Source: Octopus vulgaris (lineage: Eukaryota). Taken from it: a DNA stretch of 64,000 nucleotides. Location: the NCBI GenBank assembly GCA_951406725.2, contig OX597818.1:79050001-79114000 (forward strand), given 5' to 3'. The notes under the pieces were generated by a model, which saw only the letters and a list, made by a program, of their open reading frames with translations, did not search any database and was not told the origin of the DNA. The position numbers were made by a program, and so were the translations under genes. This document shows, in pieces, positions 52,573 through 53,224 of this stretch; positions within the stretch are counted from its first letter, which is position 1, and each line of letters opens with the position of its first letter.

Positions 52573-53224
52573 GGCAACAAGTTGAGTCGTCACTATAGTG
52601 ACGGAAGGTGCTAGTGAGCATCAGCAATGCTAGAAATGAAAGTGAAAACAACTCTTAGCCACGTGAGAGCACTTTATTAATGACTGACAAGGGAGACAAG
52701 CTCCATCCCTGTGACAAGCGAGATGGAGTCATATTAGCGCTGTTTCCAGATTTGATTAATTTTCATCATTACTCCGTTGCAAATGAGTCGTTTTGACTCT
52801 TACTCCAAGCAACGCCGGCGAACACTAGCATCCTCCAATATAAATTGCCTTTCGAATGTAAATTGCGAATAGCCACCTTAATAATTTATAGTTCTTACTT
52901 CACCATTTTCGAAATCAGTCAATGTTTCTTATGATGTTCTTTATAAGGCTGACAGGGTGAACTAAGTTCTTTAACCCTTGGTGTTTGAGTAATGAGTCAC
53001 TGATGAAAATTAATCAAATTTGAAATCAGTGCTGATATGACTCCATCTCGCTTGTCGTAGCGAGGGATCTTGTCCTGCTTGTTAGTCGTTAGAAAAATGC
53101 TCTCATGTGCTAAGAGTTGTTTTGACTCTTATTTCTAGCACTACCACCATCCGTCACTTTAGTGACGACTATACTTGTTGCCTTTCGGTTGTATATTGCG
53201 AATAGACAATCTTGATAATTTATA
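52573..53224. mobile_element. Older retrozyme-like element: about 333-bp period plus inverted copy
   Basis: Inverted arms about 52573-52775 and 52990-53182; ttgcctttcg..gta.attgcgaatag..a..tt.ataatttata repeated at 52845 and 53178. Confidence 0.8.
52994..53043 (+). ncRNA. Type-I hammerhead (decayed mirror copy 52726-52774 on minus)
   Basis: gagtca CTGATGA AAATT-aatca-AATTT GAAA TCAG-tg-CTGA TA tgactc. Confidence 0.85.

Follow-up and report, generated by a model that had tools for sequence, protein, structure and literature searches.

A decayed 347-bp hammerhead repeat with inverted arms in Octopus vulgaris: a probable Penelope-type insertion resembling a MITE

Anatomy of the locus

The locus at 52572–53224 of the window (the whole 64-kb stretch of Octopus vulgaris DNA that was analysed, whose positions are used here) is an aged and decayed copy of a non-coding repeat of 347 bp with a hammerhead motif, comprising an inverted arm, a tandem piece and a full unit. 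The inverted, 5′-truncated arm (52572–52780) comes first, followed by a 5′-truncated tandem piece (52775–52844) and by a monomer with a 40-bp tail (52845–53224), all embedded in (AT)n. Positions within the repeat are numbered q1–q393, corresponding to one monomer plus 46 bp, and the features are as follows.

52456–52571, no strand: (AT)n microsatellite of the left flank, the likely target site (TRF, 52456–52572, and sequence)
52572–52780, minus strand: inverted 5′-truncated arm, monomer q137 to q353, the apparent left TIR (alignment to the family majority)
52726–52774, minus strand: left-arm hammerhead, decayed, stem III still with AGCGCT (8-nt deletion)
52775–52844, plus strand: 5′-truncated upstream tandem piece from about q262, continuing into the next unit (deletion of about 17 nt)
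52845–53183, plus strand: full monomer, q1–q353 (family period 347 bp, 14 bp lost in this copy)
52887–52920, plus strand: putative promoter, a TATA-like hexamer (mutated in this copy) and an initiator-like TCAGTC 30 nt downstream (from the family majority)
52957–53138, plus strand: putative intron enclosing the hammerhead, with a donor-like site at 52957 and acceptor-like TTTCTAG ending at 53138 (from motifs)
52994–53043, plus strand: type I hammerhead motif, AUA site, predicted cut after 53037 (descriptor search)
53184–53224, plus strand: 40-bp tail, q354–q393, on the right end only, reaching the long 3′ terminus that is fixed in the family (family comparison)
53225–53243, no strand: AT-rich microsatellite remnant of the right flank (sequence)

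The left arm, whose outer end is the short (tail-less) terminus, is identical to the family majority at 189 of 211 positions and the segment 52845–53224 at 343 of 379, giving about equal divergence of roughly 10% for the two arms (89.6% and 90.5% identity). One derived base is common to both, which is the chance level, so the arms of this locus give no sign of a common template. The arms face each other over 52572–52768 and 53001–53183, with 156/197 identities (79%, with gaps) by BLAST and 163 of 195 aligned columns alike (84%), and folding of the whole locus gives z = −28. The preliminary description of this DNA, in which diverged inverted arms were said to mimic TIRs, is borne out by these values; the pseudo-TIR itself, GGCAAC...GTTGCC, consists of the left short terminus and, opposite it, the same sequence within the right arm; that arm extends 41 bp further. 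An internal segment had also been noted to recur 333 bp later, beyond the apparent TIR. The recurrence is confirmed, 52845–52890 and 53178–53224 being identical at 40 of 47 positions, but the tandem piece reaches further upstream than had been described, to about 52775. The spacing is 333 bp rather than the family period of 347 bp because 14 bp were lost in this copy.

A type I hammerhead descriptor gave a single match on both strands of the 64-kb window, with the core at 53000, H17 at 53037 and an AUA triplet, and shuffling the 652 nt 2000 times with dinucleotide composition kept yielded no match. The motif consists of a 6-bp stem I, CUGAUGA, a 5-bp stem II, GAAA and a near-palindromic stem III; an Rfam search of the window gave no hammerhead among the matches listed (150 of 171). 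The complete right-arm hammerhead claimed earlier, with an AUA site and a cut after 53037, thus holds as sequence but not as predicted fold, where ViennaRNA favours another structure (−4.9 kcal/mol for the hammerhead against a minimum of −11.2 kcal/mol). The family-majority motif is also predicted to misfold, and the plus-strand RNA of the entire locus is predicted to form one long hairpin burying the motif. ViennaRNA takes no account of tertiary contacts, and the predicted misfolding is therefore no proof of inactivity. The left-arm hammerhead is decayed, as had been proposed, and still has AGCGCT in stem III. What disrupts its core is an 8-nt deletion between 52769 and 52768 that had escaped notice and that took away the beginning of the core and most of the 5′ strand in stem I. 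Read from its sequence, 52572–53224 lacks two consecutive intact hammerheads and would hence not be "active" by the definition of Li et al. 2026.

Several other inverted structures lie in the window. The copy at 55067–56105 belongs to a younger family with a 569-bp period, copies 87–99% alike and termini about 98 bp apart. Its arms are alike at 394 of 399 positions, compared with 163/195 at 52572–53224, in agreement with the earlier view that the two share a layout and that 52572–53224 is the older; its plus arm ends at neither usual terminus. This copy has a GUU-type hammerhead-like motif with an irregular stem II at about 55552–55615 and the same donor-, acceptor- and TATA-like layout, and elsewhere its family runs to three or more tandem units (L075, L080). 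Directly left of 52572–53224, a second fold-back (52165–52455) sits between (AT)n runs, with arms 89% alike and CTGATGA in each; it weakly matches fold-backs near GIY-YIG loci and is probably another Penelope-type inverted insertion. Five more fold-backs of 150–1000 bp are found at 21689–22573, 39739–39886, 47846–48867 (with a hammerhead-type core in each arm), 59173–59328 and 60623–61227, making eight such structures in 64 kb. The window also contains a Penelope-type RT-EN coding remnant on the minus strand at 20100–21650 (34% to a 781-aa protein and a 78–87% DNA match to the locus L131) and a duplicated segment at 53792–54855, with a period of about 500–525 bp, that includes (AT)n and (GT)n.

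Family copies and their termini

DNA similarity and pattern searches of the 2.8-Gb genome gave 97 distinct family loci, that at 52572–53224 included, with 10 further listed places excluded. Each BLAST search scored the best 40 candidates, of 254 to 1896, with a bias to long, well-kept copies. The pattern search covered all 38 matches at one mismatch or fewer, and the estimate drawn from it suggests a few hundred hammerhead-bearing copies in the genome. The family monomer has a period of 347 bp. Copies are on average 87.2% identical to the majority (93% in the best copy), corresponding to JC of about 0.14, and on this divergence the family is judged to be old.

In the 76 copies without an inverted arm, the end lies at or past q360 in 61 (at q386–393 in 52 of these), at the short site in five and elsewhere in ten; in this tally, BLAST end points are approximate in copies diverged by 13% and the end classes were defined after the data had been seen. 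The long terminus lies in the TATA-like motif of the next unit. The 5′ starts, by comparison, take 84 distinct values in 97 loci; four of them, at q71–75, were considered as candidates for a 5′ end at the start site but may stem from the query edge. Thirty-nine of the 97 loci are longer than one unit plus tail and cross the monomer junction, the tandems L015 and L096 among them. An inverted arm is present in 21/97 loci and in 4/28 of the end-blind pattern sample, and the inverted loci span 212–728 bp with inner breakpoints from q48 to q368.

Taken alone, the locus would fit a MITE, that is, a non-autonomous DNA transposon with TIRs of about 200 bp moved by a transposase into TA sites. Like MITEs of the Tc1/mariner type, with their TA target, it is short (650 bp) and non-coding, with long inverted arms and TA on both sides, and a single-locus inverted-repeat finder would call it one; viewed as a family, it is a class I element. 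The copies differ from such MITEs in lacking fixed paired termini, a constant length and a TSD signal, and in that the inverted arm is optional, 76 of 97 loci being without it. GGCAAC...GTTGCC stands at both termini in 0/97 loci, and the right end of 52572–53224 passes the apparent TIR by those 41 bp to reach the family's fixed end. Direct repeats of at least 6 nt flank 21 of 82 loci, as against a mean of 17.6 (maximum 24) in shuffled flank pairs, a TA duplication being invisible inside (AT)n. A MITE identity was rejected on the paired termini and the variable length and breakpoints, and we give it next to no credence. The preliminary description had proposed fixed termini and TSDs, as opposed to variable breakpoints, as the check between a MITE and a retrozyme or pLTR fold-back; run on the 97 loci, this comparison supports the fold-back, and it is as a retrozyme or pLTR fold-back that 52572–53224 is classed from its sequence organization.

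A microsatellite lies in the 20 nt that follow the long end at 38 of 51 loci, compared with 8.7% of background windows; the terminal TATA can itself seed such microsatellites. In the family majority, a TATA-like hexamer lies at q43 and an initiator-like motif 30 nt downstream; q113 and q295 mark a donor-like and an acceptor-like site that enclose the hammerhead. The spacing of these motifs would suit a promoter and a 5′-UTR intron of a pLTR. Four contig sets, presumed to be RNA, were compared with family locus L004 at 80% identity; the unit was covered and no donor-to-acceptor joint was seen, a result uninformative either way. A 35-nt stretch around the acceptor-like site (L004 1766–1801, family q270–q305) is common to far more abundant transcribed repeats and to the neighbour family, and shows a depth peak with loose ends on both sides; we read it as a motif common to several families. 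One candidate for a spliced genomic copy, L164, has a deletion that begins at the donor-like site but ends without AG, and was not counted.

The hammerhead core is retained in 27 of 79 family motifs, and its mismatch rate (9.1%, compared with 11.1% elsewhere) leaves it no better kept in present copies than the rest. The stem III palindrome occurs in two forms, the GCGC type in 22 loci and the TCGA type in 5, with one-sided forms in 1 and 0 loci, respectively. This paired double change in a subfamily, which keeps stem III palindromic, hints at selection in the source elements and probably goes back to one event. In the inverted locus L219 (1482–1805), both arms begin at q148 and both have the rarer stem III form, a hint that they came from one source element.

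The genome contains intact 781-aa RT + GIY-YIG Penelope-type ORFs, with at least 18 GIY-YIG matches having the 781-aa frame. L158 (430–5672; G000:C16:20834500-20841500) is a full-length, near-intact Penelope-type element. Its 456-bp pLTRs are 99% alike and begin with a TATA box, its 781-aa RT-EN frame includes a linker rich in cysteine and is preceded by a long open stretch, and no canonical core of a hammerhead was recognized in the pLTR. No match to the monomer was obtained in the 30 GIY-YIG loci compared (of 150 scored, a small part of those in the genome), and tblastn of one 781-aa Penelope-type protein against the 97 family loci gave no joined coding sequence. A Penelope-type coding remnant lies near one of the 97, beyond a microsatellite and apparently unrelated. 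No autonomous partner was thus found among these 30 GIY-YIG and 97 family loci.

The pieces might also be solo pLTRs of an autonomous Penelope element, with no separate non-autonomous family. Most Penelope insertions are 5′-truncated to the pLTR, and the unit has the TATA/Inr-like, intron-like, hammerhead and tail features of one. However, in all 39 tandem loci the sequence upstream of one unit is another unit and never coding sequence, and downstream of the tail the copies continue into q47 onward with no ORF, so we consider this reading improbable.

Origin of the inverted arm

The family shows a fixed 3′ end, variable 5′ truncation, a partial tandem, an optional inverted arm, a one-ended tail, a hammerhead and a microsatellite or AT-rich target, all of them features of Penelope insertions. 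It is highly probable that 52572–53224 was inserted from RNA in trans, through the RT and the GIY-YIG endonuclease supplied by an autonomous Penelope-like element. This layout has already been described for Penelope-like elements and is no new kind of biology.

Starting from ends, truncations and flanks that are observed, we infer transcription, an enzyme, two primings and a joining, as follows. A tandem source locus would have been transcribed, probably from the in-unit TATA/Inr-like site, into an RNA longer than one unit. A Penelope protein would then have nicked both strands at the (AT)n site, with one nick priming a cDNA at the long start site (q393) that extended over 1.3 units to a stop near q262, and the other serving, at the short start site (q353), as primer for a second cDNA that stopped near q137. 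Head-to-head joining of the two cDNA ends, perhaps via a few matching bases, would have produced the false TIRs, and both arms would since have decayed neutrally by about 10% each. Twin priming of the L1 type on one RNA stretch was discarded for 52572–53224, whose inverted arm takes its start from a fixed site rather than from the stop point of the first cDNA.

Among the 21 inverted loci, a tail is combined with a short end in 11, with another end in 6 and with a second tail in none; two combine a short with another end and two have neither. Independent ends would predict about 64% two-tail loci where 0/21 was observed (P about 4e-10, with classes set post hoc and end points approximate). A short end is found at 13 of the 42 ends in inverted loci; among the 76 non-inverted copies there are 5 (Fisher p = 9e-4). 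In the neighbour family of 55067–56105, 10 of 19 loci are inverted head to head, 7 of which pair a long with a short end and none of which has two long ends.

This pattern bears on whether the inverted arm could instead postdate insertion, having been formed in a plain tandem copy by fold-back or template switching at the DNA level. Possible short overlaps are seen at many junctions (no control) and would suit such an event. On the other side, the left arm spans q137–q261, which is absent from the adjacent tandem piece, and ends at a short terminus common to other loci; divergence from the majority is about equal in the two arms; and a one-tail rule in two families needs a cause linked to transposition. 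An origin after insertion is, in our judgement, very improbable.

A more serious alternative concerns the template. An element of this kind could, under the classic non-LTR retrozyme model, have been copied by rolling-circle reverse transcription from a hammerhead-cut, circular monomer RNA. The 39 copies that cross the monomer junction are consistent with a circle, as are the canonical size of the type I hammerhead, the compensatory change in stem III and two inverted loci whose plus arm begins at q195, beside the cut; in the available text of PMC7229834, retrozymes of 350–390 nt from mussel and other animals form circles. Those two are, however, the only 5′ ends of 97 at the cut site (q190–198), which is no pile-up and not above chance, and the anole protein achieved insertion in vitro independently of hammerhead cleavage (PMC11167929, as far as its available text goes). 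Sequence cannot tell a circle from a linear chain, and the tandem genomic copies L015 and L096 exist, so that a linear template suffices. We therefore regard the circular template as unlikely, although clearly within consideration.

Returning to Penelope-type insertion from a longer RNA, the one-tail rule may be strict and mechanistic. The long start site would then never serve both nicked strands, since each subunit of a Penelope protein dimer would take a different site in one coupled event; the families would be a genome-scale readout of the two-site initiation observed in vitro, and a share of automated octopus MITE/TIR calls would be such fold-backs. This proposal is put forward tentatively, at somewhat short of an even chance. 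Octopus repeat libraries use MiteFinderII and HiTE (PMC13282606), and the word "hammerhead" is absent from the main text of that annotation as available to us; its supplement, or the authors' library, may already classify the family of 52572–53224.

Comparison with known systems

Among animal non-LTR retrozymes, documented together with pLTR hammerheads by Cervera and de la Pena (2014, PMC4209133; 2020, PMC7229834), the closest parallels lie in the repeat itself. The family has in common with them, as portrayed in the accessible parts of PMC7229834 and 10.64898/2026.07.22.740005, a non-coding, AT-rich monomer of about 350 bp, within the few-hundred-bp range, one type I hammerhead per unit and an occurrence as dispersed monomers and short tandems, here L015 and L096. 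It differs in that stem III at 52572–53224 is longer, with 4 bp plus a palindromic tetraloop as opposed to 1–2 bp in the typical metazoan type I. Li, Clavereau and Pollet (2026, bioRxiv 10.64898/2026.07.22.740005, in the portion available) put forward the view that animal retrozymes derive from Penelope elements as non-autonomous forms.

The layout of the locus corresponds to that of endonuclease-bearing Penelope-like insertions. In the available text of Craig et al. 2021 (PMC8557442), these are described with partial tandems, an inverted 5′-truncated copy, a tail of 30–40 bp that is often one-ended, and microsatellite targets that hide TSDs (layout in their Fig. 2), and Pen2a_Av has the same layout, with TATA and Inr-like motifs, in that of Arkhipova et al. 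2013 (PMC3846280). As in these insertions, the full unit at 52572–53224 lies behind an inverted copy and a tandem piece that are both truncated, the 40-bp tail is found at one end, hammerhead, TATA and Inr-like motifs lie in the repeat, and (TA)n targets hide TSDs. The octopus family differs from the elements described there in its 347-bp unit without an ORF, a pLTR-like monomer alone.

The priming scheme is closest to Poseidon of Anolis carolinensis, for which Frangieh et al. 2024 (PMC11167929, available text) describe two RT start sites bounding the tail in vitro, with both strands nicked and extended, and no requirement for hammerhead cleavage. Start sites about 40 nt apart would yield both termini of the 347-bp family, and AT-rich targets are common to the two. 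Poseidon differs in being autonomous, and the pairing of the two sites within inverted insertions is not counted in the available parts of that study; the tail counts at both ends of the octopus inverted loci give a sharp prediction for this Penelope system, already established in vitro.
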